The position numbers and the translations under genes are program-made. From positions 1-64,000 of the forward strand of contig CAVQJC010000017.1 of assembly GCA_963712745.1 (NCBI GenBank): a DNA stretch of 64,000 bases, in the 5' to 3' direction. The notes under the pieces are model-generated. The model was not told the DNA's origin and did no database searches. It saw only the letters and a list, made by a program, of their open reading frames with translations. Origin of the DNA: an uncultured Chloroflexia bacterium (lineage in GTDB: Bacteria > Chloroflexota > Limnocylindria > Limnocylindrales > CSP1-4). This document shows, piece by piece, positions 1,648-61,545 of the stretch. The stretch's first letter is position 1. Each line of letters starts with the position of its first letter.

Positions 1648-1678
1648 CACGTGGGCGCCCCGTCACGCCCGTGGGCGA
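1648..1678 (+). repeat. Scaffold motif A, copy 1
   Basis: cacgtgggcgccccgtcacgcccgtgggcga; 30/31 identical to 38125-38155. Confidence 0.85.
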
Positions 1679-1704
1679 AGCTGGGCGGGCCCTACGACCG
1701 GCGT

Positions 1705-1789
1705 AATCAGGCGAAACTCGGCCGCGCGTGCACCACGCTCCGGGGTCCCCCGGGCGCCCACGTCAGCGCCATGTGGGTACCGGTGGTCC
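1705..1789 (-). repeat. Scaffold motif B (cos-like), copy 1
   Basis: aatcaggcgaaactcggccgcgcgtg...ggtcccccgggcgcccacgtcagcgccatgtgggtaccggtggtc; recurs at 17789, 24718, 41373, 61418. Confidence 0.85.
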
Positions 1790-1953
1790 ACCGCCCGGCC
1801 CAACGCCCCGTCCTGGCCTGCCTGGGGAGCGCGTAGCCGGGGCTTCGATGTAGTAGTCTCCCGCTCTGTCTAGACCGACCCAGCAGGGTCGTCGCGCAGC
1901 TCGACGGCGCCGCATCCCGTTGGCGCCGCAGGACGGGGGGATAGGAGGAAGCG

Positions 1954-2625
1954 TTGTCCCGTTCCCGCACCCTGGCCCTCGTCGGCGCAGCGGCCCTGCT
2001 GCTCGTGTCCGCCGCGCCCATCGTGGCCCAGGACGAGGCCACCACCGATGACAGCATGGACATGGAGGGCCTGACCCTCGATGTCGGCGGCGTCGAGTAC
2101 GCCTTCACGAACCTACCGACGAGCGTGCCCGCGGGCACGTCCCTGACCTTCACCAACAACGGTGCCGAGGTCCACGAGATGGTCGTCGTGCGCATCGCTG
2201 ACGGCGTCACCGAGAGCCTCGAGGAGATCCTGGCCATGGAGGCCGAGGGTCGTGACCCGATGGCCGAGGGCCTGGTCGAGATCGTGGGGGACATGCCGCT
2301 CTTCGCGGCACCGGGGACCACCGCCGAGGGCACCCGGACGCTCGAGAGCGAGGGACGCTACGTCGTCCTCTGCTTCATCCCCCAGGGCCTCACGGACATG
2401 TCGGTCCTCGAGCAGCTCGGTCCAGACGCGAACCCCGAGGATATGCCGCCCGAGGTCCAGGCGATCATGGCCAACCCGCCGCACCTGGCGCTGGGCATGA
2501 TCCAGGAGTTCACCGTCACCCCGGCGGGGACCGAGGTCGGCCCGCTGCCGGAGGCTGCTTCCGACGGGATGGCACCCGAGGACGAGGAGGCGGCTCCCGA
2601 GGACGAGGAGTCGGCGTCCGAGTAG
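1954..2625 (+). CDS. Secreted cupredoxin-like copper-binding protein
   Basis: Signal peptide; HEMVVVRI and LCFIP...HLALGM ligand pattern; AGGAGG RBS before TTG start. Confidence 0.65.
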   Translation: MSRSRTLALVGAAALLLVSAAPIVAQDEATTDDSMDMEGLTLDVGGVEYAFTNLPTSVPAGTSLTFTNNGAEVHEMVVVRIADGVTESLEEILAMEAEGRDPMAEGLVEIVGDMPLFAAPGTTAEGTRTLESEGRYVVLCFIPQGLTDMSVLEQLGPDANPEDMPPEVQAIMANPPHLALGMIQEFTVTPAGTEVGPLPEAASDGMAPEDEEAAPEDEESASE

Positions 2626-2645
2626 TCGCCGGTCACAGCGGATAG

Positions 2646-2682
2646 GAGACGGGTCTGGCCCAACAGCCAGGCCCGTTTCTTC
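2646..2682 (+). terminator. Intrinsic terminator
   Basis: gagacgggtctggc...gccaggcccgtttcttc hairpin with T-rich tail. Confidence 0.55.
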
Positions 2683-2723
2683 GTGTTCGCGGCTGTCGCA
2701 GCTCGGCCCGGCTGCAAGCGGCC

Positions 2724-3113
2724 TCACCGCCGCCGCTGGCTCAGCCCCTTGCGCGCGTTGCAGCTCGCGCAGAGCACGCCCGGCCGAGCAGGCAGCGGCT
2801 CGCCACCGAGGACGAGCGGCTCGGGATGATCGGCCGCGAGCTCGCCGGGTCGGACCGCGTGCGACTCTCGATGCCAGCCCGGACAGTGCCGGCCGTGGAC
2901 CGCGACGTGCGCCTCGACCGTCCGCTTCGCCAGCCGTCGCCACGCCGACGTCCGCCGCACCGGATGGTCGGGGGTTCGCCGGAAGCGGTTGGCGAAGCCC
3001 GGACGCCCGCAGCGGTCACAGCGGCGCTCGTTCGTCGTGGGCCAGCCGCAAGACCCCCTGTGGGCCTCGCAGCCCGACAGGCGCAGGCCCGTGAGCGTGC
3101 CATCGACCATCAA
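2724..3113 (-). CDS. Phage HNH endonuclease (HK97 gp74-like), scaffold C copy 1, apparently intact
   Basis: CPGW...ADH...GG...LCASCNARKG motif; N-terminal Cys/His cluster. Confidence 0.75.
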   Translation of the reverse strand: MMVDGTLTGLRLSGCEAHRGSCGWPTTNERRCDRCGRPGFANRFRRTPDHPVRRTSAWRRLAKRTVEAHVAVHGRHCPGWHRESHAVRPGELAADHPEPLVLGGEPLPARPGVLCASCNARKGLSQRRR

Positions 3114-3482
3114 GCTGCCTCAAGCAGCGTCGCGAGGTGGTGGCGCCAGGAGCGCTCGCTCCGGAGCCAGGCGGTGGCCCGCGCGACGGGGTCCTGGCGC
3201 TCGAGGCGGGCGAGGAGGATTCTCACCGACGACGTCGGGATAGAGCTCGTCAGATAGGTGAGCACGTCGGTCCTCGTGGAAGAGGCCAGCGGCGAGCTCT
3301 AGCGCCCACGTCAGAAGCGGGTGCGTTGGAACCGCCATCGGCTCAACCACCAGTCGTGGTCGTCGCGTCTTCGGTGAGCGGTAGCCAGCCCGTCGCCTCG
3401 CCTTCGCCCGCCCGCGTTCCCGCTGACGGTACGCCGGATGCGCTGCCCGCCATTGACGCCAGTAGTCGGGTGAGACCGGCAT
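3110..3482 (-). CDS. Phage-type hypothetical protein, frameshift near 3221
   Basis: MPVSPDYWRQWRAAHPAY...DVVGE continues in another frame as ILLARLERQDP...LLEAA*, overlapping the HNH start. Confidence 0.45.
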
Positions 3483-3720
3483 ACCCATCGGCTGCCCTCG
3501 CTTCGGGGAGGGTGGCACGGTCCCAGCAGCCGGCACAGATGCGGATCGAGGCGCGGGCGCTATTGCGTCCACTCTTCTTCGAGGTGATCGTCGCGGGGAA
3601 GGCGCCGTCGGTACCGCAGGCGAAGCAGCGCGCGAGGCGTCGCTGCGCCTGGGCGATCAGCCGCTCGACGTCACGGGCGGGCATGGCGTCGAGGGCATCG
3701 ACTATGGCCGACGTCTCCAC
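3343..3720 (-). CDS. Small CxxC...CxxC zinc-finger protein
   Basis: CFAC and CAGC motifs; tightly packed in the minus-strand operon; 3' end uncertain. Confidence 0.45.
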   Translation of the reverse strand: METSAIVDALDAMPARDVERLIAQAQRRLARCFACGTDGAFPATITSKKSGRNSARASIRICAGCWDRATLPEARAADGYAGLTRLLASMAGSASGVPSAGTRAGEGEATGWLPLTEDATTTTGG

Positions 3721-4031
3721 GTCAGGTCCGCACGACCGTCGCCGACGGTCCCATCGGATAGCCGCACGGCCTGACCCTCCGCAAGGGATGGGCTCGTCGT
3801 CGGCGTCACCTGCCGTCGGGCGACCCAGGCGGTGACGGCCTCGACGAAGGCGACCATGAGCGCCACCTGCTCACCCGACCAGCCAAGACCGAAGCCGACG
3901 AGCATCGTGACCGCCGCCCGGAACAGCCCGAACGTCAGGACCGGCTCCTCGCGGACCCGCAGCGAGACGGCCTCGCCGAGTCCCTGCAGCCCGCCCTGGA
4001 GCCAGGCGAGGAGGTCGGCGAGCAGGCTCAC
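3702..4031 (-). CDS. Holin-like membrane protein
   Basis: REEPVLTFGLFRAAVTMLVGFGLGWSGEQVALMVAFVEAVTAWVARRQVTP resembles actinophage-type holins; follows the peptidase gene. Confidence 0.55.
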   Translation of the reverse strand: MSLLADLLAWLQGGLQGLGEAVSLRVREEPVLTFGLFRAAVTMLVGFGLGWSGEQVALMVAFVEAVTAWVARRQVTPTTSPSLAEGQAVRLSDGTVGDGRADLTWRRRP

Positions 4032-4895
4032 GCCGCAGTCCTCCGCGCCTCGACGAGATCGCGGATGGCGACCCACTCGGCGTCGAGCGCCTCGGTGATG
4101 GCCGGTGCGCAGTCGACGGGGCCACCCGCTTCGAGCTCCGCGATCCGAGCGCGCAGGCGCTGCTCGGTCCGGACAGCCTGTTTGGCTGCCGTAGCGGCTT
4201 CCTCCTCGATGCGGTCGATGCGCGTGGCGAGCCGGCGGCGGACGAGGCTCTCCACCGTCCAGGCCCCATACCGTTCGACCCAGACCGCGGTGAGTGTGGA
4301 GTCGGAGTCACGGAAGGCGAACTGGCGCACCTGTTTGGCGGTGATCCACTCGCCCCGGAGGTGCTTGCCGCCCGGACGGTAGGGGTCATCGACGAGGATC
4401 TCGAGGCCGTCCTTCCGTTGTCGGGCCCGGAGCGAGCGCGATGGCGTGGCCGACGTCACCGACCCGCTTCAGGGGCGAGGGTCCCTCGATGTGGTTGGGG
4501 TTGCCCGCGAGGACGGCGAGGTGCTTGTCCTGGAGAAGCGCGACGAGCGTCTTGAAGTCGATGTCGTCGGTCCGTAGCGTCGGGTAGGCGGGCCACAGGA
4601 GGGCCACCATCCGGCCTGCGGCCGAGGCGGGCAGGGGTCCGCGCTGCTGCTCGTGGGTAGCCGTGTCCGGGTCGTCGAGTCCTTTCCTCATCTTCACAGC
4701 GGTCCGGACGAGCGCCGCCGTCGAGGGCTCGTGACCCGCTGGTGTGCGGGTGGCCTCGCCGAGGCTGGCGCCGTTGACCAGGGCGAGCGTCGAACAGACC
4801 AGGCAGTCGTCGACCCCGTCGGCCGAGAGCTTCGTCGCCAGCTGCGAGGTGTGCGGCGGGAGGTACCGCGCTGGGTCGGTCCCGTAGGCGGCCAT
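4028..4895 (-). CDS. C39-peptidase-like putative endolysin with coiled-coil tail; frameshift near 4420
   Basis: Q..., DCLVCS, GHAIAL then ILVDDP give a Cys-His-Asp order across ORFs 4386-4895 and 4028-4459. Confidence 0.5.
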
Positions 4896-5095
4896 CAGGG
4901 ACGGACCCTGGGCAGGTCGACCGAGAGCAGGCCGGCCGCGGTCAGCAGCAGCGGCACGAGCACCGGCGGGCTCACCTCGTAGCCCTCGACGATGACGTCC
5001 AGGACCACGATGAGCACCACCACGGCGATGAGCAGGACCGCCGAGACCTGTCGGGCCCAGCGGTACTCGGACGGTGGATGACGGTCATCGGTCAT
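4895..5095 (-). CDS. Small two-TM membrane protein (second holin-like gene)
   Basis: Two hydrophobic helices; stop overlaps the start of the peptidase gene. Confidence 0.5.
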   Translation of the reverse strand: MTDDRHPPSEYRWARQVSAVLLIAVVVLIVVLDVIVEGYEVSPPVLVPLLLTAAGLLSVDLPRVRP

Positions 5096-5295
5096 GCCGG
5101 CGGACCGGGAAGCAGCCCCGGTCCACGAGCCAGGGGATGACGACGGCACCCGACTGACGAGGCCGAAGAGGTAGCAGGCGGCCGCCGAAGAGGACGAGCT
5201 CGAGGGGGCTCATCGGCGGGGGTGCGTCGGCCGGGCGGGGGGAGTTCGCCCGGCCCGACGCGAGTGGAGGAGGGGAGGACGTCCGTGCACCTCCC

Positions 5296-5365
5296 CGGTC
5301 TACGGGCCGGTCAGGCGGGCGTCAAGCGATGGGGCGTACGGGTGTTCGGGAAGTCGAACCGATGT
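5296..5365 (-). promoter_or_regulatory. Scaffold motif D copy 1: sigma70-like promoter facing the lysis-HNH operon
   Basis: Minus strand TTGACG-17bp-TAGACC; 5312-5365 is 44/54 identical, ungapped, to 28001-28054. Confidence 0.6.
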
Positions 5366-5537
5366 CGTACGTGGCATGTGCGCTACTGCGGCGCTACACC
5401 CAGACGAGGCTGGTGCGAGGACTTGACACACGGCGGGGCTTTCGAGCGGTGGCAGAAGGGCCTGCGGCGCTCGAACCGCACGATGATCGGGTGCTCGTCG
5501 AGAGCGGCAGGGTGCTCTGCCATCGTATCCTCACTCG

Positions 5538-7854
5538 ATGTACGGCCAGACCAGGCAGAAGGGCGAAGCCAGCACGGTCCGCGGGGAGCAGCGCGCGGCG
5601 TTCCGGCCGCCCCTCCCGCTCATCGAGGCCAAGCTCCGCCCGCGCACGTCGCCCCCGGTGATCGTGCCGCGAGAGCGGCTCATCCGCCAGCTCATAGCCG
5701 AGCCGCGGAAGCCGATCGTGTCGGTCACCGCACCACCCGGTTACGGCAAGACGGTGCTGCTCTCCCAATGGGCGGCACGGGAAGAGCGACATGTCGCCTG
5801 GCTGACGCTCGACGATCTCGACAATGACCCCAGCGTCTTTCTCACGAACCTCGCTTCGTCACTCGACCGGATTCGACCGATCGACGCCTCGATGGGAGCT
5901 GCCATCGCCGTCCATGGACATCGGATCCTCGCGACCGCCGTGCCACGGATCGCCTGGGAACTGTCCCGCTGGGAGCAGCCCGGCCTGCTCATCCTCGATG
6001 ACGTCCACCAGCTGACCCATCGGATCTGTCTCGATGCCCTGGCTCAGCTCCTCGATCTCCTACCCCCTGGCTTCCAGGTCGCCATGGCAGCGAGGGTCGA
6101 CCTCGATCTGCCGCTGGCGCGGTATCGGGCGCGGCAGGCGCTGCTCGAGCTCGGCGGCGCGGACCTCGCGCTGGACCCGGCGGAGACGCTCGCCCTCGTG
6201 GCCGCGATGGGCGACCCGCTCGATGCGACCGGGGCCCGGCTCCTCAGCGAGCGGACCGAGGGCTGGGCTGCCGGCATCTACCTCTTGACCCTCGAGCGGA
6301 CACGACACGACGGGGTCCACAGCGCAACCGACATCTCGGGCGGGGTCGGCTACGTCGCTGAGTATCTGCGGGCGGAGCTCGAGCGAGACCTGAGCGACAG
6401 CGACGTCGCCCTCCTCACGCGGACATCGATCCTCGACGTCGTCGAGCCGAGCCTTGCCGAGTCCGTCGCTGCCGTCTCGCGTGCCGAGGAGCGGCTGAGT
6501 TCGCTGGCGCACGCGAACCAGCTGATCGGTCGGGTCGAGGGTCCGGAGCGTGGCCTTTCGTTACCACACGCTGCTGCGTGACTTCCTGGCAGCGGAGCTC
6601 GAGCGACGTGAGCCAGGAACGGCGCCCGAGCTTCATCGCCGGGCCGCGGCCTGGTATGCCGACCACGGACGCACGGAGCTGGCGATCGAGCATGCGCTGG
6701 CCGGTGGGGATATGGACGGCGCGGCTCCGCTCGTCACCGCCGCGGTCCTGTCGATGCATCACGGTGGCCATGACGATCGGCTGCAACGTTGGCTCGGCAG
6801 CTTCGACGACACGGTGGTCGCGCGACACCCATCGCTGGCGGTGGTCGCTGCCTGGATCTACGCGGTCAACGGGCGACCGGGCGCCGCCGACCACATGGCC
6901 GACATCGCGGAGCGGTTCGACATCACCGGCGCACCTGACGACGGCGCGTCGTCGTTCGGATCGTCGAAGGCGATGCTGCGCGCGGCCCTGGCCCGAAGCG
7001 GACCTGCCGCGATGCTCTCGGATGCGGCGCTCGCGGCAGCGGAAGAGGGAGCGGGTCGTCGATGGCGCATGTACGCGTTCACGCTGCTCGGGTGGGCGCA
7101 CCGCCTGCTGGGCGATGCCGACGCGGCCGACGCAGCCTTCGCGGAGGCTGTCGCCTCGGCCAGGGTGAGCGGCGTCAACCCCTTCATCGCCCTGGCAAGC
7201 CGCGCGTCGAACGCGATCGATACGGGGGATTGGCACGCTGCAGAACGGCTGGCCCAGGAGAGCCATGAGGAGTTCAGGCGGACCAACCTCGGGGAGATCG
7301 CCTCGTCGCTCCTCGCTCACGCGGTCGCGGCCCGCGTGGCGATCCACAACGGGGACCAGGCACAAGGCCAGGCTGAGCTCGTCCACGCGCAACTGGCCCG
7401 TCCGCAGGCCTCCTACGCTCTGCCCTGGCTCGCCGTGGCTGCACTGCTCGACCTCGCGCGTGCCTATCTCGCGGTCGCGGATATCGGAGGCGCCCGTGCC
7501 ACGGTCGTCGAAGCCGAACGGATCGCTCGACGACGCCCGCAGCTGGGGACGCTCATCGCTGAGCTCGATGACATCCGGCGGCAGCTGGCCGACGCCAGCG
7601 AGACCCTCGTGGGCTCGTCTGCTCTCACCCCCGCCGAGCTGCGCTTGCTGCCCTTCCTCTCGACCTATCTGACGTTCGAGGAGATCGCCGGCCGGCTGTC
7701 GCTGTCACGCCACACGATCAAGAGCCAGGCCATCGCCGTCTACGCCAAGCTTCAGGCCACGAGCCGCAGCCAGGCCGTCGAGCGGGCCATCGAGCTGGGC
7801 CTGATCGAGCCTCTACCGGACCTGCTGCTCGCGCGTGGGACGCCGGAGGACTGA
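5538..7854 (+). CDS. MalT-like LuxR-family regulator (ATPase + HTH); frameshift near 6545
   Basis: APPGYGKT Walker A, LILDDVH, TEGWAAG, FRYHTLLRDFL, C-terminal LTPAELRLL HTH. Confidence 0.85.
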
Positions 7855-7891
7855 CCGCCGGCAGGCTGGGTCAGGACTCGACAATCCCGGG

Positions 7892-8293
7892 CTAGAGCCC
7901 GCCGTGGTGCTCCTTGACGGGCAGCCCGGCCTCTCTCCAGGCGGTGATCCCGCCGTCGAGGTTGGCGACACGCTCGTAGCCCATCTCCTGCATCGACAGC
8001 GCCGCGAGCGCCCCGCGGGCGCCCGAGTTGCAGTAGATGATCACGCGGCGAGTCGGCTCCAGGTCGTACTTGAGGCTGGGCGGCAGACGTGGTCCACACT
8101 CGGGGTCCGAGACGAACTCGAGCAAGCCCCGGGGGATCTGGTAGGCGCCCTCGATGTGGTGCTCCCACTCCACGGGCTCCCGGACGTCGACGAAGACGGC
8201 AGTTCCGGCTTCGAGCTCCGCCTGTGCGTCCGTCGGTGACACGGCCTCGATCTTCGTGCTGGCCTCCAGGACCAGGTCTCGCACACTCTTCAC
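7892..8293 (-). CDS. Rhodanese-like protein
   Basis: VDVREPVEW, IPRGLLE, YCNSGARG, LDGGITAW; strong RBS before GTG. Confidence 0.85.
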   Translation of the reverse strand: MKSVRDLVLEASTKIEAVSPTDAQAELEAGTAVFVDVREPVEWEHHIEGAYQIPRGLLEFVSDPECGPRLPPSLKYDLEPTRRVIIYCNSGARGALAALSMQEMGYERVANLDGGITAWREAGLPVKEHHGGL

Positions 8294-8485
8294 GATGCGT
8301 CCTCCTCTCCACTCGCGGTGGCCTGCTTGCGGCCAGTCAAGCGTGGTCGCGGGCGGCAGGCATCGGGCGATTCGTCCGATGTGGACCGCGAGGGGACGGG
8401 CCCAGATTGCGCGCATGACGCCACGACCCGGCGCGGCAGCTGGCCGAAGGACGGCCCGAGTCGTGCCGCAGAAAGGAAGGCGCTG

Positions 8486-9667
8486 ATGAACGCTCAGACC
8501 ACAGCCGCCCAGGGGCGGGTCGCCACGACCGTTCCCCTCGATTGGAGCGAAGTCTGGTTCACCAACTGCCCCATGGTCTCCGCCAACAACGTGGACCAGG
8601 AGCTGGGGTGGTGCCGCGAGGAGTACAAGAAGATCGGCGTCGAGTACGCCTACTTCCGCCACGCCCCGGAGAACAACTGGTACCCGCACTACATCCACAA
8701 CCTCGACAACCTCATCCGCTTCGGTGGCCTCTATCCGCCGATCCACGTCCACGCCGACATCCGCCGCACGGTGCTGCTCGGAGCGACGTGGGTCTACGAG
8801 GGCGGCTGCATGGCCGTGCGCGCGCGCGACGGGATGCATCGGATGGAGGACCTGAAGGGCAAGAAGATCGGCATCTCCAAGAGCCTGAACACCATCAAGA
8901 ACGACTGGTGGCGGATCCAGGAGCACATGGGCATCGAGAACATGCTGGCGCTCCACGACATGACGATGGACGACATCGAACTGGTGGAGTTCCCCTACCC
9001 AGACGACTGGTATGACAAGCCAGAGATGCTCGTCCCGCCCATGAACAACCCCTCAGAGTTGTGGATGCGCCGCGACCACAAGCACGACCTGGCGTTCCGC
9101 CCGCTGGAGTCGGCACTGCTCGCCGGCACCGTGGATGCCATCTACACCCAGAGCAAGGTCTTCCAGCACCTCCAAGAGGCGACCGGCCAGATCACGATGA
9201 TCGAGGACCTCTCGAGGTACCCCGACTGGACCATCCAGGTCGCCAACACGCCCGCCGTCATCACCTGCACCGACGTCATGGCTGATGAGCACCCCGAGCT
9301 CGTCCTCGCCTACATGCGAGCGATGATCAAGGTCGGTCGATGGGCCAACGAGCACAAGCGTGCCGCTGGCGCGATCCTCAACCGCCAGACCTTCTACCTC
9401 GATGCCGAGGACACCTACCAGGGCATCAGGGACGTGGACATGGTGCCGAGCCTGAGCGCGCAGAACATGCAGTGCATCAGGATCGGCAAGGACTTCATGG
9501 TCAGCCACGGCTACATCAAGAACGATTTCGACGTCGACGAGTGGGCTCGTCCCGAGTTCCTGGAGCAGGCGGCGACGCAGGTGCTCGAGGAGGAATGGGA
9601 GCGACGGAGCTGGAGCAAGCTGCCCGCGGGTGGCGGACTCGAGGTGGAAGGCACCCGGCTCGGGTAG
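8486..9667 (+). CDS. DszB-like desulfinase / SsuA-fold protein
   Basis: FTNCPMVSA and HYIHNLDNLIRFGGLYPP parallel the DszB Cys27/His60/Arg70 motifs; DLKGKKIG; no signal peptide. Confidence 0.7.
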   Translation: MNAQTTAAQGRVATTVPLDWSEVWFTNCPMVSANNVDQELGWCREEYKKIGVEYAYFRHAPENNWYPHYIHNLDNLIRFGGLYPPIHVHADIRRTVLLGATWVYEGGCMAVRARDGMHRMEDLKGKKIGISKSLNTIKNDWWRIQEHMGIENMLALHDMTMDDIELVEFPYPDDWYDKPEMLVPPMNNPSELWMRRDHKHDLAFRPLESALLAGTVDAIYTQSKVFQHLQEATGQITMIEDLSRYPDWTIQVANTPAVITCTDVMADEHPELVLAYMRAMIKVGRWANEHKRAAGAILNRQTFYLDAEDTYQGIRDVDMVPSLSAQNMQCIRIGKDFMVSHGYIKNDFDVDEWARPEFLEQAATQVLEEEWERRSWSKLPAGGGLEVEGTRLG

Positions 9668-9736
9668 TCGACGACAGGCTGGACAGATCGCAGCCGAGAA
9701 CTTGCGCGCAGCGCAACCGATCAGGAGGAAACCAGC

Positions 9737-10554: not shown

Positions 10555-10711
10555 TCCGTCGCCCCGTGGGCCCTGACGGGCCCGCGCCGGTCAGTAGGGC
10601 GCAAGCACGAGACCGAGCCGAACCAAGTCATGGGCCGCGGCCAGGCCGGGCACCACGACGAGCGTGGGCCCAGGGCTGTGGACCACACAACCGCAGTAGG
10701 ATTGAGGAGTC

Positions 10712-52409: not shown

Positions 52410-52498
52410 CGGCCACCCAGGCAGGATCGGGCCATGCTGATCACGATCGAGGGCTGTCCCAGCACGAAGACGATGAGCATGGGCACGCAGCTCACGGC
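52406..52498 (-). pseudogene. Orphan 3' end of a homologous ABC permease gene
   Basis: AVSCVPMLIVFVLGQPSIVISMARSCLGGR* aligns without gaps to 53569-53661 (AVSVVPMLIVFVLGQRWIVNSMAQSGLGGR*). Confidence 0.8.
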
Positions 52499-53552: not shown

Positions 53553-53568
53553 ACCGGCTCTCCTCTCA

Positions 53569-54426
53569 CTACCGTCCGCCCAGTCCTGACTGGGCCATGC
53601 TGTTGACGATCCAGCGCTGGCCGAGAACGAAGACGATCAGCATCGGCACCACCGAGACGGCAGAAGCCGCCATCACCAATGCGTAGTTGAAGCCACCGTA
53701 CTGACCCTGGAACTGCGACAGCAGCAATGGGAGGGTGAACGTCTCCGTCGTGTTCAGGAAGATCAACGGCAGGAAGAAGCTGTTCCAGGAATCGAGTGCG
53801 ACGATGATGCCGAGGGCCCCCAGGGCCGGCCTCAGGTTGGGCAGCACGATGGAGAAGAACACGCGCCCACGGCTGGCGCCGTCGATGGTCGCAGCCTCCT
53901 CCAGCTCGATGGGGATGGCACGCACGAACTGTCGCACCAGGAAGACGGCGAAGGGGCTGCTCAGGGCCGCGGGCACGATCAACGCCAGGTGGGAATCGAT
54001 CCAGCCGATTCGGCTGAGCATCACGAAGAGCGGCACCACGATGACCTGCTTGGGCACCATCTGGGTGGCCAGGAAGCCGATGAACAGGACCCGACGCCCG
54101 GGGAATTCGAGACGCGCGAAGGCGTAGCCGGCCATCGCCGCGGTCAGCAGCGTGCCGAGGACGATGAGGGCCGTGATATAGAGGCTGTTCCAGTAGGCTT
54201 GCGGGAAGTCGACCGCGTTCCAGGCCTCGGTGAAGTTGTCGAGGACCCAGGGATCGGGCCAGATCGACAGCGGCCGCCGCAGGATCTGCTCGAGCGACTT
54301 GAACGACGTCAGGATCATGAAGACCAGCGGCCACGCCATCGCGAGGGCGAACACGGCCAGGCCGGCGTAGAGGGCGACGCGTCGCGGCTGGATGCGTCGC
54401 GGCGACGTCGTCTGCTGGGCGGTCAT
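53569..54426 (-). CDS. Carbohydrate ABC permease (MalG-like)
   Basis: IPIELEEAATIDGAS EAA loop; multiple TMs. Confidence 0.92.
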   Translation of the reverse strand: MTAQQTTSPRRIQPRRVALYAGLAVFALAMAWPLVFMILTSFKSLEQILRRPLSIWPDPWVLDNFTEAWNAVDFPQAYWNSLYITALIVLGTLLTAAMAGYAFARLEFPGRRVLFIGFLATQMVPKQVIVVPLFVMLSRIGWIDSHLALIVPAALSSPFAVFLVRQFVRAIPIELEEAATIDGASRGRVFFSIVLPNLRPALGALGIIVALDSWNSFFLPLIFLNTTETFTLPLLLSQFQGQYGGFNYALVMAASAVSVVPMLIVFVLGQRWIVNSMAQSGLGGR

Positions 54427-55385
54427 GACTCGTAGTGGACGAAGCGCTTCTGGCCGCTGAACTGGACCAGCGTGACTACGAGCGTCATGGCCAGGAGCAT
54501 CAACGCCGCGGCGCTAGACACGCCCAGCTCGAAGCGCTGGAACCCCAAGTCGAACACGTGGATCACGATCGTTCGGGCAGCGTCCTGCGGCCCGCCGTCG
54601 TCGGTCAGCACGTAGACCGAGTCGAACGTCTGCAGGGAGCTGATGGCGGCGACCACCGTGGCGAAGAAGATGGTCGGCGTGAGGAGCGGGATCTTGACTC
54701 GGAAGAGCGTGGTCCAGGCGTTCGAGCCATCGACCTTCGCGGCCTCGAGCACCTGCGGCGGAATGGTCTGGATGCCTGCCAGGAAGATGAGCACGTTGAG
54801 GCCGAGCGACGACCAGATGATCACGATGCACACCGCGATGAGGGTGTAGGTCGGGTCACCCAGCCAGTCGATCGGCTCGACGCCGGGAATCAGGGCCAGC
54901 AGCTGGCTCAGCGCCCCATCAGCTCGGAAGAGCTGCTGCCAGATCATGGCCACGGCCACGGAGCTGGTGACCACCGGCGCGACGACCAGGACCATGAATA
55001 CGGGACGGGCCTTGACCTCGTTAAGGCCCAGGGCCAGCGCGAGGGCGAGTCCGAGTCCGACGGGGATCGTGATGAGCCCGATGGCGACGGTGTTGACGAC
55101 CGAGTGGATGAAGCGGGGGTCGCTGAGCTGGTCGCGGAAGTTGTCCAGACCGACGAACTCCGCCGGGCTCAGGCCGTCCCACTCCAGGAAGGCGAGCGCC
55201 AGCCCGGCCAGCAGTGGGATGGCCACGAAGACCACGGTCCCGAACAGCTGTGGTGCGATGAGCGCCAGGCCCCAGCGCCGGTCCGTTGCCCGCCATGGCG
55301 CACCCGACCCCGACGACATCGACTCGCCATCAGGCACGCGATAGCCACGTCGCCAGCGTTGCCGGAGCAGCGGCCGCATGGTCAC
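54423..55385 (-). CDS. Carbohydrate ABC permease (MalF-like)
   Basis: FVGLDNF, IPPQVLEAAKVDGS. Confidence 0.92.
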   Translation of the reverse strand: MTMRPLLRQRWRRGYRVPDGESMSSGSGAPWRATDRRWGLALIAPQLFGTVVFVAIPLLAGLALAFLEWDGLSPAEFVGLDNFRDQLSDPRFIHSVVNTVAIGLITIPVGLGLALALALGLNEVKARPVFMVLVVAPVVTSSVAVAMIWQQLFRADGALSQLLALIPGVEPIDWLGDPTYTLIAVCIVIIWSSLGLNVLIFLAGIQTIPPQVLEAAKVDGSNAWTTLFRVKIPLLTPTIFFATVVAAISSLQTFDSVYVLTDDGGPQDAARTIVIHVFDLGFQRFELGVSSAAALMLLAMTLVVTLVQFSGQKRFVHYES

Positions 55386-55456
55386 CGTGGTTCATACCGA
55401 TGGCCGGGGATCATGTCCCCGGCCATCGGCGTTTTCCCTCGTGCGGAAGGATCGAG

Positions 55457-56755
55457 CTATTCGGCGTCGGCGATCAGGCCCTCGATGGTGGCGACGGTGT
55501 CGTCGACGCTTGCTCGCCCCTCGTACATCTCCTGCATGGCAGCGCTGATGTCACCGGACAGGCCGGGCACGCGTGCCTCACTGGGGAAGTTGGCGTAGCC
55601 CATGTCGCGGACGGAGATGAACTCCTGGGCGCTCGCGGGGTAGCCCTCGAGCACGATGTCGTCCGCGCCCTTGATGGACGGGACAGCGTTGCCACCACCA
55701 CTCAATCGGAATCGCTGACCGTCGGCCGAGAGGAACTCCTCGTAGAAGTCCCAGTCGGCATCGGCGTTGTCGGTGTTCTTGTTGATGCCCAGGTAGGCAG
55801 CCGCGACGCCCGTGGGGCGGGCGGCACCGTCTGGCGTGGGCCAGCGCACGATGTCGTAGCTGTCACCCTCACCCAGCGATTCCACCAGGCCGATGGTGTA
55901 TCGACCCTGCGAGAAGAATCCGGCGTCGTGGTTAACGAACGTGGGGTCGGCTCCGGGTTCGGGCATGGTGTCCGCCAGGGCGAACTGACCGGCCTGGAAG
56001 CGCTTGGCGAGCTCCTCCAGCGCGGCGATGGAGTTCGGGTCGTCCGGCAGCACGAAGTTGCCGTCCTCGTCGTAGACCAGGCCGTCGTTGGCAGTCACCC
56101 AGCTCCAGTGAGTCGCCCAGTAGTTCCAAAAGATCGCCCCGAGTTTGCCGGCCGCGTCCAGAGCGTCGATCATCTCGAGGAACTTGTCGGTGGTCCACTC
56201 ATCGTTGGCTGCCAGCTCCGCCGGATCTTCCGTGATGCCCGCCGCATCCAGGGCCTGCTTGTCGTACCACAGCATGTCCGGATTGCTGTCGACGGGGATG
56301 CCAAAGATCTGGCCGTCCTTGGCCGCCGCGCCGTACAGCGTGTCGATGAAGTCGTCCGCCGAGATCTGGCTGTCCTCAGCCGCGAGGAAGTCGTTGAGCG
56401 GGAGCAGCACCCCCGAGTCGACGAACTTGCCGATGTTGTCGTCACCGATGTAGAAGAGGTCTGGCGCGGTTCCGGAGATCAGCTGGGCCAGCAGCTTGGA
56501 GTGGTAGTCCGAGTACGACGGCACGGGCTGTAGGCTCACGTCGATCTCGGGATGGCGCTCCATGAAGGCCGCGTTGAACTCGTCGAATCGACCGAGCTCG
56601 TCCGGGTTGCCCCAAGTCGACCAGACGACCTCGGTCTTGTCCTGCGCCAACACAGCGCCCGGGAGCGCCGTTCCGACCAGTGCGACGGCTCCGACCAGCG
56701 CTAGCGTACCGGCCGCCAAGTGACTCTTGCGATTCCGATGCATATCTCGCCCCAT
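55457..56755 (-). CDS. Carbohydrate ABC substrate-binding protein
   Basis: Signal peptide; GTAPDLF, YGIP-like motif, LWYDK. Confidence 0.9.
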   Translation of the reverse strand: MGRDMHRNRKSHLAAGTLALVGAVALVGTALPGAVLAQDKTEVVWSTWGNPDELGRFDEFNAAFMERHPEIDVSLQPVPSYSDYHSKLLAQLISGTAPDLFYIGDDNIGKFVDSGVLLPLNDFLAAEDSQISADDFIDTLYGAAAKDGQIFGIPVDSNPDMLWYDKQALDAAGITEDPAELAANDEWTTDKFLEMIDALDAAGKLGAIFWNYWATHWSWVTANDGLVYDEDGNFVLPDDPNSIAALEELAKRFQAGQFALADTMPEPGADPTFVNHDAGFFSQGRYTIGLVESLGEGDSYDIVRWPTPDGAARPTGVAAAYLGINKNTDNADADWDFYEEFLSADGQRFRLSGGGNAVPSIKGADDIVLEGYPASAQEFISVRDMGYANFPSEARVPGLSGDISAAMQEMYEGRASVDDTVATIEGLIADAE

Positions 56756-57041: not shown

Positions 57042-57102
57042 CCGAACGCTTCCGACCGAGTGGTGTCGAAGTGGTGTCATCCCGCCCACAGGCCTTGATG
57101 TC
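57042..57102 (+). repeat. Scaffold motif G copy 1
   Basis: ccgaacgcttccgaccgagtggtgtcga...gccttgatgtc, same spacing as 58668-58728. Confidence 0.7.
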
Positions 57103-57815: not shown

Positions 57816-58181
57816 TCAGGCTGGCTGCTCCTCGGCGGCGTCGGCATCGCCCGAGGTCGCGTCGATGGATTCAGCGAGCTCCTCCCGGCTGAGGTGGCTC
57901 ACCTCCACGATCGTCGGATGCCCGCCGCGGTCCTTCCACCGGGTCTGGATGCGGACCTCCTCACTCTCACCCACGAGCCGCAGGACCACGACGTACGCGG
58001 CTCCCCCGTGCTTGATCGACTCCACGGTCGCCTCGGTCGCCGGCAGCGGTAACAGCGCCAGCACTTCGCCCAGCTTCTGCCTCAACTCATCGCTGATGTC
58101 CTCGCTCATGCGTGAGACGTCCCCGGCGACGAGCGCGGCACACACGGCCTCGGCGCGTTCGCGGACTTGCTGCTCATCCAT
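57816..58181 (-). CDS. Hypothetical protein (possible NTF2-like fold)
   Basis: MDEQQVRERAE start after purine-rich RBS; GC3-biased. Confidence 0.55.
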   Translation of the reverse strand: MDEQQVRERAEAVCAALVAGDVSRMSEDISDELRQKLGEVLALLPLPATEATVESIKHGGAAYVVVLRLVGESEEVRIQTRWKDRGGHPTIVEVSHLSREELAESIDATSGDADAAEEQPA

Positions 58182-58667: not shown

Positions 58668-58728
58668 CCGAACGCTTCCGAACGCATGGTGTCGATCAAG
58701 GGTCTTCGCACTCAGACGCCTTGATGTC
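58668..58728 (+). promoter_or_regulatory. Scaffold motif G copy 2, probable promoter/operator of the F operon
   Basis: ccgaac-gctt-ccgaac direct repeat and TTGATG upstream of 58786. Confidence 0.55.
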
Positions 58729-58785
58729 CTCGCCGGGGCATGCCGTCATAGATGCATGCACACCACCACCACGAAGGAGCGACCG

Positions 58786-59112
58786 ATGGCCATCACCACG
58801 ACCCGCGAGCAGCGGCGCATCGCGAACCACGAGCGTGCGCTCGCCGCCTACCTGGAGCATCACGCCGCCGCGGTGGCGCTCATCAGCCGCATCCAGCTCC
58901 CCGTCGCCAACCACGACACGGCCCCCGACCCGGAGGCCATCAGCTGGGGCACCGTCGGCTCGATGGAGAAGACCCGCCACGACCTCCAGGCATTGAGCGA
59001 CTGGCTCTTCGGCGAAGGCGAGTACGCGGAAGGGCCGCGTTGCGAGTCGGGCTGGACGGGCGATCGCTGCACGTTCCCGCTGCGTAACCACGGGCCTCAC
59101 AGCAACGAGTAG
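58786..59112 (+). CDS. Small phage-associated hypothetical protein
   Basis: AAGGAG RBS; ALAAY...DPEAISWGTVG...FGEGEYA recalls small proteins near prophage packaging genes. Confidence 0.6.
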   Translation: MAITTTREQRRIANHERALAAYLEHHAAAVALISRIQLPVANHDTAPDPEAISWGTVGSMEKTRHDLQALSDWLFGEGEYAEGPRCESGWTGDRCTFPLRNHGPHSNE

Positions 59113-59121
59113 GAGACGACC

Positions 59122-59325
59122 ATGACCACGAGGTCCACCACCACCGAGCCCCGCCGCTGTACGGGCAGCGCCCGCTTCGGCATCGAGCCCCACGAGGCAT
59201 CCATCACCGAGTTCCCCAAGCAGCCCAGCCGCAAGGACGGCCTGGGCACGATGTGTACCGAGCACTGGCGCGCCTACGTGAAGGGCCTGCGCGAGGCGCG
59301 GAAGGGCACGGAGACCTCAGGATGA
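59122..59325 (+). CDS. Small Zn-ribbon-like protein, scaffold F copy 3 (intact)
   Basis: AGGAG RBS; RRCTGSARFGIEPHEA...FPKQPSRKDGLGTMCTEHW. Confidence 0.7.
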   Translation: MTTRSTTTEPRRCTGSARFGIEPHEASITEFPKQPSRKDGLGTMCTEHWRAYVKGLREARKGTETSG

Positions 59326-60126
59326 TGCGCCGGCGAGCACGATCTGCCCATGCATGACCGGGAAGTGGCCCGGCACGGTGCATCCGAACAGCAGCCCACT
59401 CGGGTCGTCGGGCACCGTCCAGGTCAGCTCTCGCGGGCCCGACGTCCAGGTGTCGATGCCGACGTCCGTCGTGGCCTGCGGCTGGCTCAGCTCTTCCTCG
59501 TTGCCGATGAAGAACGAGTGGTCGAACCCGGCCGTGTTCTTCACGCGGATGAGCAGCGTCTCACCCGGCACGACACCGATGGCCAGGACCGGCGCACCGT
59601 CCTTGCCGACGAACCGCAGCGAGGGATCCGCGTCGAGCTCGACGACCGAGTCGTACGGCGGCAGCGAGGCTCGCGGTCCCTCCTCCTCCGCCTCCTCCAC
59701 ATCGACTCGGGCCGCCATGGCGCAGCGCTCGGCGTCCTCCTCGGTCACGCGGACGGCACGGGCGAGCTCCTCGCGGAACCGTCCAGTGGCGATGTCCTTG
59801 CTGGCGATGTCGGGGCCCGCGCTGATAGAGAGAAGCGTCGGGACCAGTCCCCACCAGGCGCCGTAGGAGCCGAGGTAGCAGTCGTCGGGGACGACGGAGC
59901 GCAGCTCCTCGGCGAGTGAGATCGCGGCGAGAGCGCCGTGGCCCTCCAAGATCTCGAGCATCGGATCCTCGACCCAGTGTCCGACCTGCGCGTACGCCCG
60001 CTCCGCGAAGTCGGCGTAGGGCGTGGTGGGCCGCTCGTCGGCGATGCGATGGTCCGCGAGCGCCGTGGCCGGCGCGAAGGTCAGCGCGAAGCCCAACGCC
60101 AGGTAGCCGATCCGGGACCGTCTCAT
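59317..60126 (-). CDS. Secreted protein with C-terminal cupredoxin domain
   Basis: Signal peptide; NTAGFDHSF and CTVPGHFPVM. Confidence 0.7.
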   Translation of the reverse strand: MRRSRIGYLALGFALTFAPATALADHRIADERPTTPYADFAERAYAQVGHWVEDPMLEILEGHGALAAISLAEELRSVVPDDCYLGSYGAWWGLVPTLLSISAGPDIASKDIATGRFREELARAVRVTEEDAERCAMAARVDVEEAEEEGPRASLPPYDSVVELDADPSLRFVGKDGAPVLAIGVVPGETLLIRVKNTAGFDHSFFIGNEEELSQPQATTDVGIDTWTSGPRELTWTVPDDPSGLLFGCTVPGHFPVMHGQIVLAGASS

Positions 60127-60169
60127 ACAGCACCTCCAGCCCCCCGGAAACCACGCACTCAGTCAGGGA

Positions 60170-60216
60170 TTGACAGGCGGTCTTCCGCCCGTATAGTACG
60201 TCCTACGATATATCGT
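60170..60216 (+). promoter_or_regulatory. sigma70 promoter and palindromic PadR operator
   Basis: TTGACA-16bp-TATAGT followed by acgatatatcgt. Confidence 0.7.
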
Positions 60217-60239
60217 GACAAGTAATAAAGGACGCACAA

Positions 60240-60566
60240 GTGCCGGAGACCAGGATCCCGGAGTTCGGGCGCTTCGCCGAGCCCGCCTTGCTCATCCTCG
60301 TGAGCCTCGGCGACGGCCCCAAGCACGGGTACGCGATCATGACCGACATCGAACAGGCTACCGGCCGACCGTTGGGCCCGGGCACGCTGTACGCGGCGCT
60401 CGGGCGCCTGGAGGAGCGCGGGCTCATCCGCCCGCTCGCCAAGGTCGACCGGCGCCGGCCCTACGAACTCACCGCGGCGGGCCAGTCCGTCCTGAAGGAG
60501 CAGCTCAGTCAGCTGCAGTCCTTCGCGGCCATGGGCCTCGCGCGGCTCGAGGGCGGATCCGCATGA
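60240..60566 (+). CDS. PadR family regulator
   Basis: GPKHGYAI, GPGTLYAALGRLE, RRPYELT. Confidence 0.9.
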   Translation: MPETRIPEFGRFAEPALLILVSLGDGPKHGYAIMTDIEQATGRPLGPGTLYAALGRLEERGLIRPLAKVDRRRPYELTAAGQSVLKEQLSQLQSFAAMGLARLEGGSA

Positions 60567-61330
60567 AGTGGCTCGTCCGACTCTATCCCGCCGCCTGGCG
60601 CGAGCGCTACGGCGACGAGATGGAGGCGCTCCTCGCGGAGCGTCCGCTCGGGCCATTCGACGTGGTCGATCTCTTCCTGGGGGCGTTCGACGCCCACCTG
60701 CACCTGCGCGGCCTCGGACACGCATCCGAGCATGAGAAAGGGTTCACCATGTCTCTGCGAAACGCAGGCATCGCCGCCATCATCGGTGGCACCTTCTGGG
60801 GGCTCACCTGGGTCCTCATCTTCCTGGACGATCTCGTCGGTGCCGGCGACGGCAACGTCCCGGTGGCCTTCCTGACGATCTCCATCGCCGCCATCGCTAC
60901 GCTCGCCGCGCTCGCGGGCCTGAGCGCCGTCCAGGCGCGCGTCCACCGACGGACGACCTGGCTGAGCTTCCTGGCTCCGGCCGCCGGTTTGGCCCTCGTC
61001 CTCGTCGGGTTCCTCGCCATGCCAGTGGCCGACATCTTCTGGACCGTCGGCATGAGCGGGCTGCTGCTCTACATGGTCGGCGTCGCCGTGTTCGGAGTCG
61101 TCACCTTCGCGACCGGCGTCTTCCGCCGCCCGCCGCCGGCGCTCATCGCGGCTGGTGGCATCGTCGGAGGCGCCGCATTCCTGGGGCTGCTGGGGACCGG
61201 CGGCGCCGATGTCCCGATGTGGGTCGCTTTGCTCGGTGTCCTCGTGATGTCGGTGGGCTGGATCCTCATGGGGGTCGATGTGGTCCGGCGTGGTCGCTCG
61301 ACGATGGCCGCGGGTCCGGCGCCGGCCTGA
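60563..61330 (+). CDS. PadR-associated membrane protein
   Basis: LYPAAWRERYGDEM N-terminus; about 6 TMs; ATGA overlap with padR. Confidence 0.75.
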   Translation: MKWLVRLYPAAWRERYGDEMEALLAERPLGPFDVVDLFLGAFDAHLHLRGLGHASEHEKGFTMSLRNAGIAAIIGGTFWGLTWVLIFLDDLVGAGDGNVPVAFLTISIAAIATLAALAGLSAVQARVHRRTTWLSFLAPAAGLALVLVGFLAMPVADIFWTVGMSGLLLYMVGVAVFGVVTFATGVFRRPPPALIAAGGIVGGAAFLGLLGTGGADVPMWVALLGVLVMSVGWILMGVDVVRRGRSTMAAGPAPA

Positions 61331-61417
61331 GCGCCGCCAAGGCACGGACGAGCGCCCGTACCGACCCATCGGTGCGGGCGCATCGCCTAGGTCTGTCGCT
61401 CGCCGTCCGCTTCGCAC

Positions 61418-61545
61418 GGCGTGACCAGAATCGCGAAACTCGGCCGCGCGTGCAGCACGCTACGGGGTCCCCCGGCGCCCATGTCAGCGCCCTGTGGGTA
61501 CCCCTGGGTCAGCGCCCGGGTCGACGCCGGGCTCAGCGCCGCCGC
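61418..61545 (-). repeat. Scaffold motif B copy 5 plus HNH stop remnant
   Basis: gcgtgaccagaatcgcgaaactcggccgcgcgtgcagcacgc...tgtgggtacccctgggtcagcgcc...gggctcagcgccgccgc. Confidence 0.85.

Follow-up and report, generated by a model that had tools for sequence, protein, structure and literature searches.

Co-oriented remnants of an HK97-like phage late region in a Chloroflexota chromosome point to a probable graveyard of repeatedly entering prophages

The first 64,000 nucleotides (nt) of contig CAVQJC010000017.1 from an uncultured Chloroflexia bacterium contain seven short recurring modules, A to G, all in the same orientation and separated by unrelated genes. This whole stretch is referred to below as the window; it is the first part (positions 1 to 64000) of the 452-kb contig C17 of genome G000, a 4.2-Mb bin in 20 contigs with 84.6% completeness and 5% contamination. 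The modules are remnants of the region of a temperate phage genome that runs from the lysis genes through an HNH endonuclease gene toward the terminase genes. The array is best understood as an unusual prophage graveyard, formed by the repeated entry and erosion of related phages carrying moron genes, and not as a new gene-capture machine; we assign this reading a probability of roughly 0.6.

A preliminary description had listed the seven modules as each recurring in one orientation, and self-BLASTN and a repeat finder recovered all of them. All 33 self-BLASTN repeat pairs are direct, with copies of 39 to 650 nt at 75 to 93% identity: A at 1640 and 38117 (39 nt, 92%), B at 1699, 17783, 24719, 41372, and 61417 (55 to 127 nt, 76 to 93%), C at 2721, 19345, and 25841 (137 to 255 nt, 87 to 89%), D at 5312 and 28001 (54 nt, 81%), E at 13949 and 36351 (305 nt, 93%), and F at 37792, 40386, and 59111 (67 to 197 nt, 84 to 87%). 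Module G (57042 and 58668; 61 nt, 77%) was recovered by genome BLAST only and is the weakest of the seven. The inverted repeats returned by the repeat finder were short and poorly matched (30 to 54 nt, 70 to 87%), and the chance that 19 items would share one orientation at random is negligible. The co-oriented series extends past the window to about 87 kb on C17, and one complete unit, inverted and in the order F-A-B-C-D-E, is found on contig C20 (30.9 to 42.4 kb); the approximately 90-kb C17 stretch and the C20 unit together hold at least nine co-oriented late-region remnants.

In a whole-genome search of G000, HNH (module C), B, A, F, and G were confined to C17:1-90 kb and C20:30-43 kb, and further copies were detected elsewhere for only E, D, and the first lysis gene, on C4, C8, C9, C10, C11, and C16. 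These three kept their relative order wherever more than one of them was detected, for example, as E, D, first lysis gene on C10. For the genus-wide mapping, 17 protein queries and three DNA modules (A, B, and D, as four query sequences with B taken from two copies) were searched against the two regions of G000 and nine contig stretches of seven congeners, with frameshifted gene pieces counted separately. Across these 11 contigs of eight congeneric genomes, 276 of 277 module matches were co-oriented, the lone exception being a paralog of E at 38% identity. Arrays with 5 to 15 HNH matches over 60 to 150 kb were present in G021, G022, G024, and G054. The cyclic order first proposed for the modules (G-F-A-B-C-lysis/tail-D-E) is not significant from the window alone: when that order was imposed, 1,091 of 100,000 random arrangements of the 19 items needed as few turns, and with shuffles free to choose their own best order, 127 of 300 equalled the observed arrangement, the order having been chosen post hoc. 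The order gains weight from its independent replication in the C20 unit and on nine contigs of seven other genomes.

The identity of the parts comes from phage relatives. The HNH protein query retrieved ten loci from IMG/VR. In two of these loci (L008 and L009) the HNH gene is followed by TerS, TerL, and portal genes, and in a third (L007), the HNH relatives in these loci having 45 to 62% identity, by a convergent homolog of F and then by genes for a ParB-methylase, Terminase_4, TerL_ATPase, SPP1_portal, a scaffold protein, and a capsid protein. A fuller prophage on contig C9 of the congener G007 contains, in order, D, genes for two small membrane proteins (TM43 and TM69), an Amidase_2 lysin gene, HNH (PF01844), F, G, ParB-methylase, TerS, a full-length TerL, portal, scaffold, and a PF05065 capsid gene. 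HNH is directly beside the terminase genes in L008 and L009, with F/G and ParB-methylase between them in L007 and in G056:C5, where the order is HNH-B-A-F-G-ParB-TerS-TerL. In the phage sense, the combined order is E, D, two small membrane proteins, lysin-region genes, HNH, a cargo slot, B, A, the leftward F operon, ParB-methylase, TerS, TerL, portal, and capsid. This homology to the lysis-HNH-terminase region of L007 to L009 and G007 indicates that the modules are very probably late-region pieces of one family of HK97-like temperate phages (siphoviruses).

The congeners also provide a graded series of erosion. TerL is full length in G007, nearly whole and frameshifted in G008 (where portal pieces are also present), reduced to residues 1 to 211 (twice) in G056, to residues 1 to 108 in G054, to residues 1 to 101 and 1 to 57 in G024, and to residues 1 to 41 in G001, and is missing from G000. 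TerL survives as N-terminal stubs, and HNH has been eroded from the opposite side. Of the two explanations offered in the preliminary description, the second, a hotspot into which related prophages integrated repeatedly and eroded, fits both the homology to a real phage region and this TerL series. The capsid protein of L007 had no match in any of 49 genomes across the genus, a result that says little, since the capsid of G007 belongs to another family.

Within the window itself, no integrase, terminase, portal, or capsid gene was detected by a Pfam scan of 59 open reading frames (ORFs, called with a codon model trained on the G000 genome), by tblastn with phage proteins, or by whole-genome scans, in agreement with what had been noted at the outset. 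The tblastn search with proteins of L006 to L009, TerL, portal, and capsid among them, had no match in the window; its only matches were stubs of ParB (C17:81156-81383) and TerS (C17:88775-88909), both outside it. PF03354 had no match in the whole G000 genome. PF00589 occurred only on C4, C12, and at 376 kb of C17, and PF00239 occurred only on C1, which puts the integrases and a resolvase of the genome well away from the arrays; neither family was found in the first 100 kb of C17 or the first 60 kb of C20. The Pfam matches of the window ORFs included no primase or replication family, and no tRNA gene was found in the window or in C17:64-100 kb. In the arrays of relatives, integrase genes were present as fragments only in approximately 0.8 Mb of array loci.

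Module C is the 3' part of a minus-strand gene encoding 126 amino acids (aa), the translation of which contains the motif DH..P..GG...C..CN..K. Residues D92, H93, G100, G101, C112, C115, and N116 are invariant in an alignment of eight homologs, and the profile built from that alignment matches PDB entry 4h9d ("HNH endonuclease"; E value of 9.7e-4) and, more weakly, a Cas9-type (Csn1 family) protein and McrA. With the catalytic His and Asn and the flanking Cys pairs in place, the predicted protein carries an HNH (beta-beta-alpha-metal) motif. Single HNH sequences had no match in Pfam, PHROG, or NCBIfam, the L007 homolog reaching only HNH_5 at an E value of 0.006, below the cut-off, and no match was found among the annotated phage genomes of INPHARED. 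The window contains three copies on the minus strand: a near-full gene at 2724 to 3113, which has a 1-nt length difference near its 5' end from the intact C20 copy; a 5'-truncated copy at 19352 to 19613 (about residues 41 to 126); and a fragment at 25847 to 25994 (about residues 79 to 126). Of 24 sampled congeners, 10 had an HNH match; the 16 genomes of the neighboring family had none.

Element B, a conserved noncoding element of about 110 nt, contains 11- to 12-nt GGSTCRRCGCC repeats with helical-turn spacing in its HNH-proximal half. Its five window copies are on the plus strand at 1699 to 1808 (together with a cargo gene, 98% identical to C17:86921-87827), 17783 to 17914 (the last 20 nt, 17895 to 17914, being a remnant of the HNH 3' end), 24719 to 24791 (right half only, with an HNH-end remnant at 24772 to 24791), 41372 to 41480, and 61417 to 61545 (with three of the 11- to 12-nt repeats at 61506 to 61540). 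Copies differ by 1-nt indels in homopolymers and show no 3-nt periodicity, and their invariant blocks are at least 10 bases long. The mean identity of B was 0.82 (26 copies), compared to 0.72 at HNH third positions from the same set of loci, which indicates that B was, or is, a functional site; it is constrained and noncoding. A 367-aa ORF that spans B (C17:86003-87106) has an Arg-rich second half with the look of a wrong frame and has no family match. A structured RNA or an attC-like hairpin is also not indicated: single copies fold no better than shuffled sequences (z of -0.08 to -1.5), the 25-copy alignment contains no covariation (16 predicted pairs, 1 compensatory, and a covariation term of +0.14), and the only Rfam match over the window was to a c-di-GMP-II riboswitch.

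The surroundings of B locate it within the phage gene order. Remnants of the HNH 3' end, comprising the last 11 to 70 nt of the gene, are found within 17 to 57 nt after B in 12 of 28 copies, compared to a background of 0.018 per 130 nt, and on metagenome contig L087, B directly abuts the HNH 3' end with nothing between them. HNH|B is therefore the native junction, into which cargo was inserted. B follows HNH and precedes the packaging genes, as would be expected of a cos site. In HK97, cos is described as following the HNH gene, with TerS binding 15 bp from the cut and with gp74 stimulating cos cleavage (PMC11331095). Judged by position only, B is most probably the packaging recognition (cos) region, which in HK97-type phages comes after HNH. 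An exact-pattern search of IMG/VR did not find B. Element A is a 39-nt imperfect palindrome with two plus-strand copies in the window (1640 to 1678 and 38117 to 38155); in relatives, it is located just past the stop codon of the last gene in the leftward F operon. As a candidate terminator A was rejected, the hairpins being inconsistent among copies and folding no better than shuffles (z of -0.2 to -1.2).

Module E is an 89- to 121-aa ORF with a GerE/LuxR-type helix-turn-helix (HTH) match in Pfam, together with 90 nt upstream. Both window copies are on the minus strand, one at 13894 to 14253 (an 89-aa ORF with the 90 nt upstream) and the other at 36200 to 36655, where the N-terminal 71 aa and the upstream region are as in the first copy and the C terminus differs. 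D is part of a conserved leader of about 190 nt, which in the window is found at 5205 to 5400 on the minus strand and contains two CCGTACGAC repeats, a TTGACG-N17-TAGACC arrangement seen by eye, and two hairpins (z of -2.2 and -3.6) just before the start of TM43, the first lysis gene. The second copy of D (28001 to 28054, plus strand) is an orphan with no lysis genes behind it. D behaves as a noncoding element, and E and D most probably correspond to a regulator of late genes and the site on which it acts, a resemblance by position only; any likeness of E to lambda Q would likewise be one of position only.

The lysis-region operon is located upstream of HNH and is transcribed from 5213 down to 3110 on the minus strand. 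It contains the genes for the small hydrophobic proteins TM43 (43 aa; 5094 to 5213) and TM69 (69 aa; 4895 to 5095), the lysin-position ORF169 (4386 to 4895) and ORF143 (4028 to 4459), a 109-aa holin-like protein (3702 to 4031; phrog_9752 holin, 1.4e-7), and the lysis-region ORFs P125 (3343 to 3720) and P51 (3110 to 3265). Its interpretation as a putative lysis cassette is based on the holin match and on the hydrophobic stretches of TM43 and TM69, which in G007 are followed by the Amidase_2 lysin. The lysin-position proteins of G000 had no family match, and the lysin had no relatives in IMG/VR. For a 280-aa lysin-position protein, an AlphaFold model from 16 sequences was unusable (predicted local distance difference test score of 38.8) and a PDB profile search gave E values of 0.7 or worse; an Atlas lead alone points to Peptidase_C39-like clusters (scores of 0.92 to 0.94). 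The lysin type varies by unit, with the 280-aa C39-like lead, ORF143/169, and Amidase_2 each represented.

The leftward operon comprises F, FAM15, and G. F is a 67- to 75-aa protein with window copies at 37804 to 38025, 40374 to 40490 (a C-terminal fragment only, residues 37 to 75, 62%), and 59122 to 59325, and FAM15 is encoded at 37574 to 37807, all on the plus strand. Of the two G repeat copies, also on the plus strand, the one at 57042 to 57102 (61 nt, 77%) is weak; the other, at 58668 to 58728, is followed by the 118-aa G gene (58756 to 59112, plus strand; phrog_14596, 1e-11). A 121-aa gene divergent from G (57816 to 58181, minus strand) is kept beside G in G022, G054, and G056. The labels given to the modules in the preliminary description held for HNH (by translation and the 4h9d profile match), for the LuxR-type HTH of E (Pfam GerE), and for the lysis genes; "tail" did not hold, and the "Zn-ribbon" assigned to F was left without support, as F had no family match in profile searches. 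The suggestion that all units eroded to the same cis-acting parts applies to B and D, which behave as noncoding elements; C, E, F, and G are pieces of genes.

Sequence divergence among the HNH copies bears on how the units came to be together. The 28 pairs formed by the eight intact copies, three of which are on one contig, have a median ratio of nonsynonymous to synonymous divergence (dN/dS) of 0.14, with dS averaging 0.51. For 24 broken or truncated copies compared with intact ones, dN/dS was 0.05 to 0.26, the same as for intact pairs over the same codons, so only a small part of the fragments' divergence accumulated while they were pseudogenes. Intact and truncated copies alike thus bear the signature of purifying selection. 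A tree of 27 HNH copies is a star in which copies do not cluster by genome: the genome's own copies required 5 changes for 6 rows, and 180 of 500 shuffles were as low. Together, the dN/dS values and the star tree favor divergence inside working phages followed by separate arrival and argue against a single old amplification that decayed in place.

Under the reading of repeated entry and erosion, related phages would have entered the locus repeatedly. They may have done so as tandem lysogens or as incoming circular genomes that underwent homologous recombination with a resident remnant, and either route would give direct orientation without a resident integrase. Deletions may then have taken everything from TerL to the next E, removing lethal and costly genes, and the junction in G056 between TerL residue 211 and E could be the scar of such a deletion. 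Occasional tandem duplication and exchange between copies would have added to the pattern.

Several observations weigh against this sequence of events. A search for a phage with the same modules led to the fuller prophage in G007 and to viral contigs with modules next to terminase, portal, and capsid genes, but B and A are absent from G007, the only fuller prophage, and from all ten loci retrieved from IMG/VR with HNH, so that the phage origin of both elements, and B as cos, are inferred from position only. The window at 5.5 to 11.2 kb is collinear with G022:C1 at 451 to 456 kb (85 to 97% aa identity), and a YefM-YoeB-E arrangement is common to the window and G009; these shared segments point to inheritance of an old array, at odds with recent truncation of HNH. 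HNH survives mostly as 3' pieces, and the 3' end is kept in about 30 of 32 HNH copies of at least 130 nt, a bias that random deletion alone does not predict. No unit in the window has an attachment site, tRNA, or integrase associated with it, and the route of entry is therefore not demonstrated. The scan for sigma-70 promoters found no site in D, and no terminator, the promoter having been read by inspection. Finally, packaging and lysis genes have been reported as preferentially lost from incomplete prophages (PMC7744054), and here they are what remains.

An alternative is that one ancient prophage remnant was amplified in the host by tandem or segmental duplication through unequal crossing-over and diverged in place with no repeated entry, which we consider unlikely. 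Local duplication does occur: TerL is broken at residue 211 in two units on G056:C5, with the E of the next unit following in both cases, and a 908-nt segment of B plus cargo in G000 is duplicated at 98% identity (C17:1699-2594 and C17:86921-87827). Duplication also preserves orientation, as in 276 of the 277 matches, and parts of the array are common to G022, G009, and G054. However, copies within a genome resemble one another no more than they resemble copies from other genomes, the break points of HNH and TerL differ in nearly all units, and the lysin types differ between units. Truncated HNH pieces that lack a start have dN/dS values, relative to intact copies, of 0.14 to 0.21 at a dS of about 0.5, whereas decay in place should bring the ratio near 1.

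It is also conceivable, if improbable, that the array is a maintained working system, in which B plus HNH, the lysis cassette, and the regulators are kept by selection, the units serving as satellite-like elements or transduction starts packaged by a helper phage of the same family, or as decoys for the terminase of an infecting phage, with the slots used for passenger swapping. The conservation of B relative to synonymous sites and its helical-turn-spaced repeats would be expected of such a system, as would the retention of the B-proximal 3' end of HNH in nearly all copies and the presence of arrays in at least seven congeners. By coordinate arithmetic alone, several B-to-B distances are 37 to 46 kb, about one genome length of such a phage. 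The lysis genes of a unit shared with G054 have dN/dS values of 0.04 to 0.24 at dS of 0.33 to 0.44, similar to a host-like neighbor (0.19; dS, 0.48), which could reflect host selection or two arrivals from related phages. This unit, at 2.7 to 5.4 kb of the window, corresponds to G054:C19 at 76 to 79 kb (86 to 88% nt identity), but the flanks are not collinear, leaving positional orthology unproven. Its slot in G054 contains different DNA, including an extra HNH fragment. Cargo therefore differs between shared units, as the preliminary description had proposed to check, which is in favor of a maintained system.

Against such maintenance, no intact integrase, replication, capsid-size, or TerS gene is present in the G000 units, many copies are fragmented or frameshifted, erosion is graded, and 14 of the 24 sampled congeners have no HNH match. 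Ten cargo proteins searched with PADLOC included no known defence family beyond one match to an HTH region. The earlier suggestion that repeated retention of the modules reflects selection is not demonstrated, as low dN/dS is equally expected from divergence inside active phages. The first of the two explanations offered initially, in which the array would be a gene-capture platform or satellite in its own right, is also not supported: the units have no integrase or replication gene, and the slots are filled in G007 too. A more specific version, which we regard as quite doubtful, is that arrays are kept as series of 5 to 15 co-oriented cos-like sites (B plus the HNH 3' end) over 60 to 150 kb that would be cut by the terminase and HNH when a phage of this family replicates, yielding 35- to 45-kb chromosome segments with their passenger genes for integrase-free, cos-driven transduction or acting as a decoy defence, with the HNH slot as the point of passenger entry.

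An artefact of metagenome assembly or binning, such as strain variants or phage contigs joined in series, is very improbable: the bin is in 20 contigs and incomplete, it carries an indel error, and public contigs are too short to verify long-range order, but the repeats (39 to 650 nt, 75 to 93% identity) are too short and too diverged to mislead an assembler, the same architecture is present on nine contigs of seven other genomes, some of them 0.4 to 2.2 Mb long, units and cargo blocks are collinear with G054 and G022, and GC content is even, at 65 to 72% all along the window. The indel is a 1-nt difference at 21682, where a base is missing in the contigs of all four public runs matched to the window, so the assembly carries indel errors and "broken" gene calls are provisional. 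The public-run contigs matching 13 to 30 kb of the window, found with the segment from 17 to 27 kb, are near-identical, of low depth, and just 0.05 to 0.7 kb long, hence too short to confirm long-range order; read joints with short sides (20 to 27 nt) were excluded as evidence. The near-identical sequences come from estuary and sediment metagenomes. An AAA_16 regulator ORF (19707 to 21800) is probably cut short by the indel at 21682 and may run on into the ORF at 21475 to 22269. Indels in the assembly may likewise account for split genes, such as the sulfatase at 11410 to 11985 and 12023 to 13804.

Cargo is found in three variable slots, E|D, HNH|B, and next to A. The HNH|B slot holds one to three genes in either orientation and, where it holds several, each may be followed by another HNH fragment. 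In the window, this slot contains a 223-aa gene (1954 to 2625, plus strand) with an N-terminal hydrophobic, signal-like stretch seen by eye and no family match; a 433-aa gene (17989 to 19290, plus strand) matching the Hvo_1808 surface-protein family at 145 bits, below the cut-off of 200; and a luciferase-like monooxygenase gene (24807 to 25814, minus strand), with 15 nt separating it from one copy of the HNH-end motif and 32 nt from the other. Between E and D, the gap is about 120 nt on C10, compared to 8.3 to 8.6 kb of cargo in the window. One such block (5538 to 13804, plus strand) contains two AAA/LuxR regulator ORFs, two rhodanese genes (that at 7892 to 8293 on the minus strand), an NMT1-like gene, a DUF6325 gene, and the split sulfatase. 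The other (28142 to 36297, plus strand) contains two genes for extracytoplasmic function (ECF) sigma factors, three for propeller proteins, an esterase gene, and members of an anti-sigma-like family. On C20, two copies of A flank a sigma/anti-sigma pair. The fuller prophage in G007 also carries genes in its E|D and HNH|F slots, and passenger carriage is therefore a trait of the phage family. The slot genes behave like phage morons, and ordinary chromosomal blocks between remnants are a second kind of cargo. One such block (42559 to 56743) includes genes for a GH42 beta-galactosidase, a GcvP-like pair, NAD kinase, a short-chain dehydrogenase/reductase, DeoR, a GH63-like protein, and ABC-type sugar uptake; a second GcvP pair, on C1, is 40 to 43% identical to the pair in the window.

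Several paralogous sets are expanded in the slots, with seven ECF sigma factors, eight unannotated anti-sigma-like proteins, and five Reg_prop-type propellers, usually as pairs of a sigma factor and a partner. They are located at 14381 to 15830, 28142 to 31178, 33374 to 36297, and 61595 to 63350 of the window and at C20:32452-35053 and C20:39933-41986. Five tandem repeats of about 147 nt at 16044 to 16957 are blades of a Kelch-repeat propeller (16153 to 17007; Kelch_4, 4e-30). The window gene at 8381 to 9667 has copies with 82 to 86% identity on C2 and C16. A 1,385-nt segment common to C17:82116-83500 and C8:87335-88719 (99.35%), considered as a possible insertion sequence, encodes an NMT1-like binding protein and not a transposase. 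Toxin-antitoxin pairs recur in the array: a YoeB toxin/YefM antitoxin pair (36753 to 37288, minus strand) is next to the second copy of E, with the same neighbors in G009:C16, and the duplicated B-cargo segment is separated from the TerS stub by an antitoxin-like gene and a PIN-like gene (C17:88064-88755; VapBC-type by sequence inspection).

Riboswitches of the c-di-GMP-II class (RF03169; scores of 47.5 and 54.6 bits, both over the gathering score) occur at 38849 to 38951 and at C20:43691-43778, in each case on the minus strand and directly upstream of an SRPBCC/polyketide-cyclase-like gene (38394 to 38837 and C20:43229-43675, both on the minus strand). They accompany two of four SRPBCC paralogs, both beside the F/G module; the paralogs at C17:75189 and C17:90355 had no match at the gathering threshold.

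The relatives contain further features of note. On G007:C9 (L077), an ORF with a NUMOD3 motif (7314 to 7913), homing-endonuclease-like, is inserted between TerS and TerL, and the ParB-methylase gene (8414 to 10588) has a match to an intein-splicing domain. In G056, a tRNA gene (C5:71771-71844; L079 15772-15845) about 3.8 kb past the TerL stub, at the array end, is a possible original attachment site. Locus L006 of IMG/VR (1 to 13051) contains an E-like HTH gene, HNH at 62%, a gene for an 871-aa protein, and an ECF sigma/anti-sigma pair, as well as a tyrosine-integrase-like gene, next to which is an unannotated 365-aa gene, and a primase-like gene, with no structural genes in 1 to 13051. L006 may be related to the array units as a satellite-like or integrative element; its primase-like gene has no counterpart in the arrays.

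If only erosion is involved, the arrays offer an unusually clear natural series showing what portion of a temperate phage is retained in an uncultured Chloroflexota lineage that has received little study, and the part retained runs counter to the reported trend in which packaging and lysis genes are lost first. The analysis defines a previously unannotated phage family, with HNH, F, G, B, D, and lysin-region proteins that lack a curated family, and it indicates that accessory genes (ECF sigma/anti-sigma sets, hydrolases, a monooxygenase, and surface proteins) reach one chromosomal hotspot by way of phage late regions. If the arrays are partly maintained, be it through B still functioning in packaging or through a lysis cassette controlled by the host, they would represent a new integrase-free route of phage-driven gene transfer or defence.

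A full-text literature search, in the portions of texts it covered, returned no description of co-oriented late-region arrays, which is not proof of their absence. Integron cassette arrays are similar in having co-oriented short conserved elements with unrelated single genes between them. In contrast to integrons, no IntI-type integrase was found in or near the array, and B has no conserved hairpin or covariation; the spacing is 7 to 20 kb with multigene content on both strands, and the conserved elements are remnants of phage genes. Satellites of the cos type (SaPIbov5-like phage-inducible chromosomal islands [PICIs] and capsid-forming PICIs) are described as having, in the chromosome, a helper-type packaging site and/or HNH and TerS genes without a full virion set (PMC5052747; bioRxiv 10.1101/2022.09.08.507074), as may be the case here. 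Unlike the array units, these satellites are discrete elements equipped with an integrase and with modules for regulation and replication. The units are fragments of differing extent separated by ordinary genes, and they have neither the integrase and attachment site nor the replication or primase genes of PICIs, capsid-forming PICIs, or P4-like elements.

Morons are extra genes between conserved phage genes, for example, beside cos in lambdoid phages, a concept from the HK97/HK022 literature. The slot cargo resembles them in consisting of single unrelated genes in fixed intergenic positions and in either orientation, with variable content and with the same slots filled in the fuller prophage; it differs in that the HNH slot of the array is bracketed by HNH 3'-end remnants of variable length and can hold several genes.

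The window does not contain the integrase, terminase, portal, capsid, and tail genes of an intact or inducible prophage. Like defective prophages, the array has lost lytic and structural functions and shows truncated genes, graded erosion, and retained passengers. It is unlike them in that one short region is represented by at least nine co-oriented remnants at a single locus, a pattern that recurs across the genus, and in that the lysis and packaging-proximal part is kept without an integrase; in a survey of 1,384 prophages, genes for packaging, replication, and release were reported to be preferentially lost and integrase genes were enriched (PMC7744054). Compared with the late region of HK97-type and lambdoid phages, the window keeps the first part only and has no terminase, portal, capsid, tail, integrase, or early genes, the leftward F, FAM15, and G operon and ParB-methylase intervene between HNH and TerS, and site B is a candidate by position. 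The likeness to that region is in the gene order itself: lysis genes, HNH, a site, TerS, TerL, and portal follow one another in L007, L008, L009, and G007:C9, a small regulator gene, E, is found just upstream of the hairpin leader that precedes the lysis genes, and HNH adjoins the packaging genes as gp74 is described as doing in HK97 (PMC11331095).

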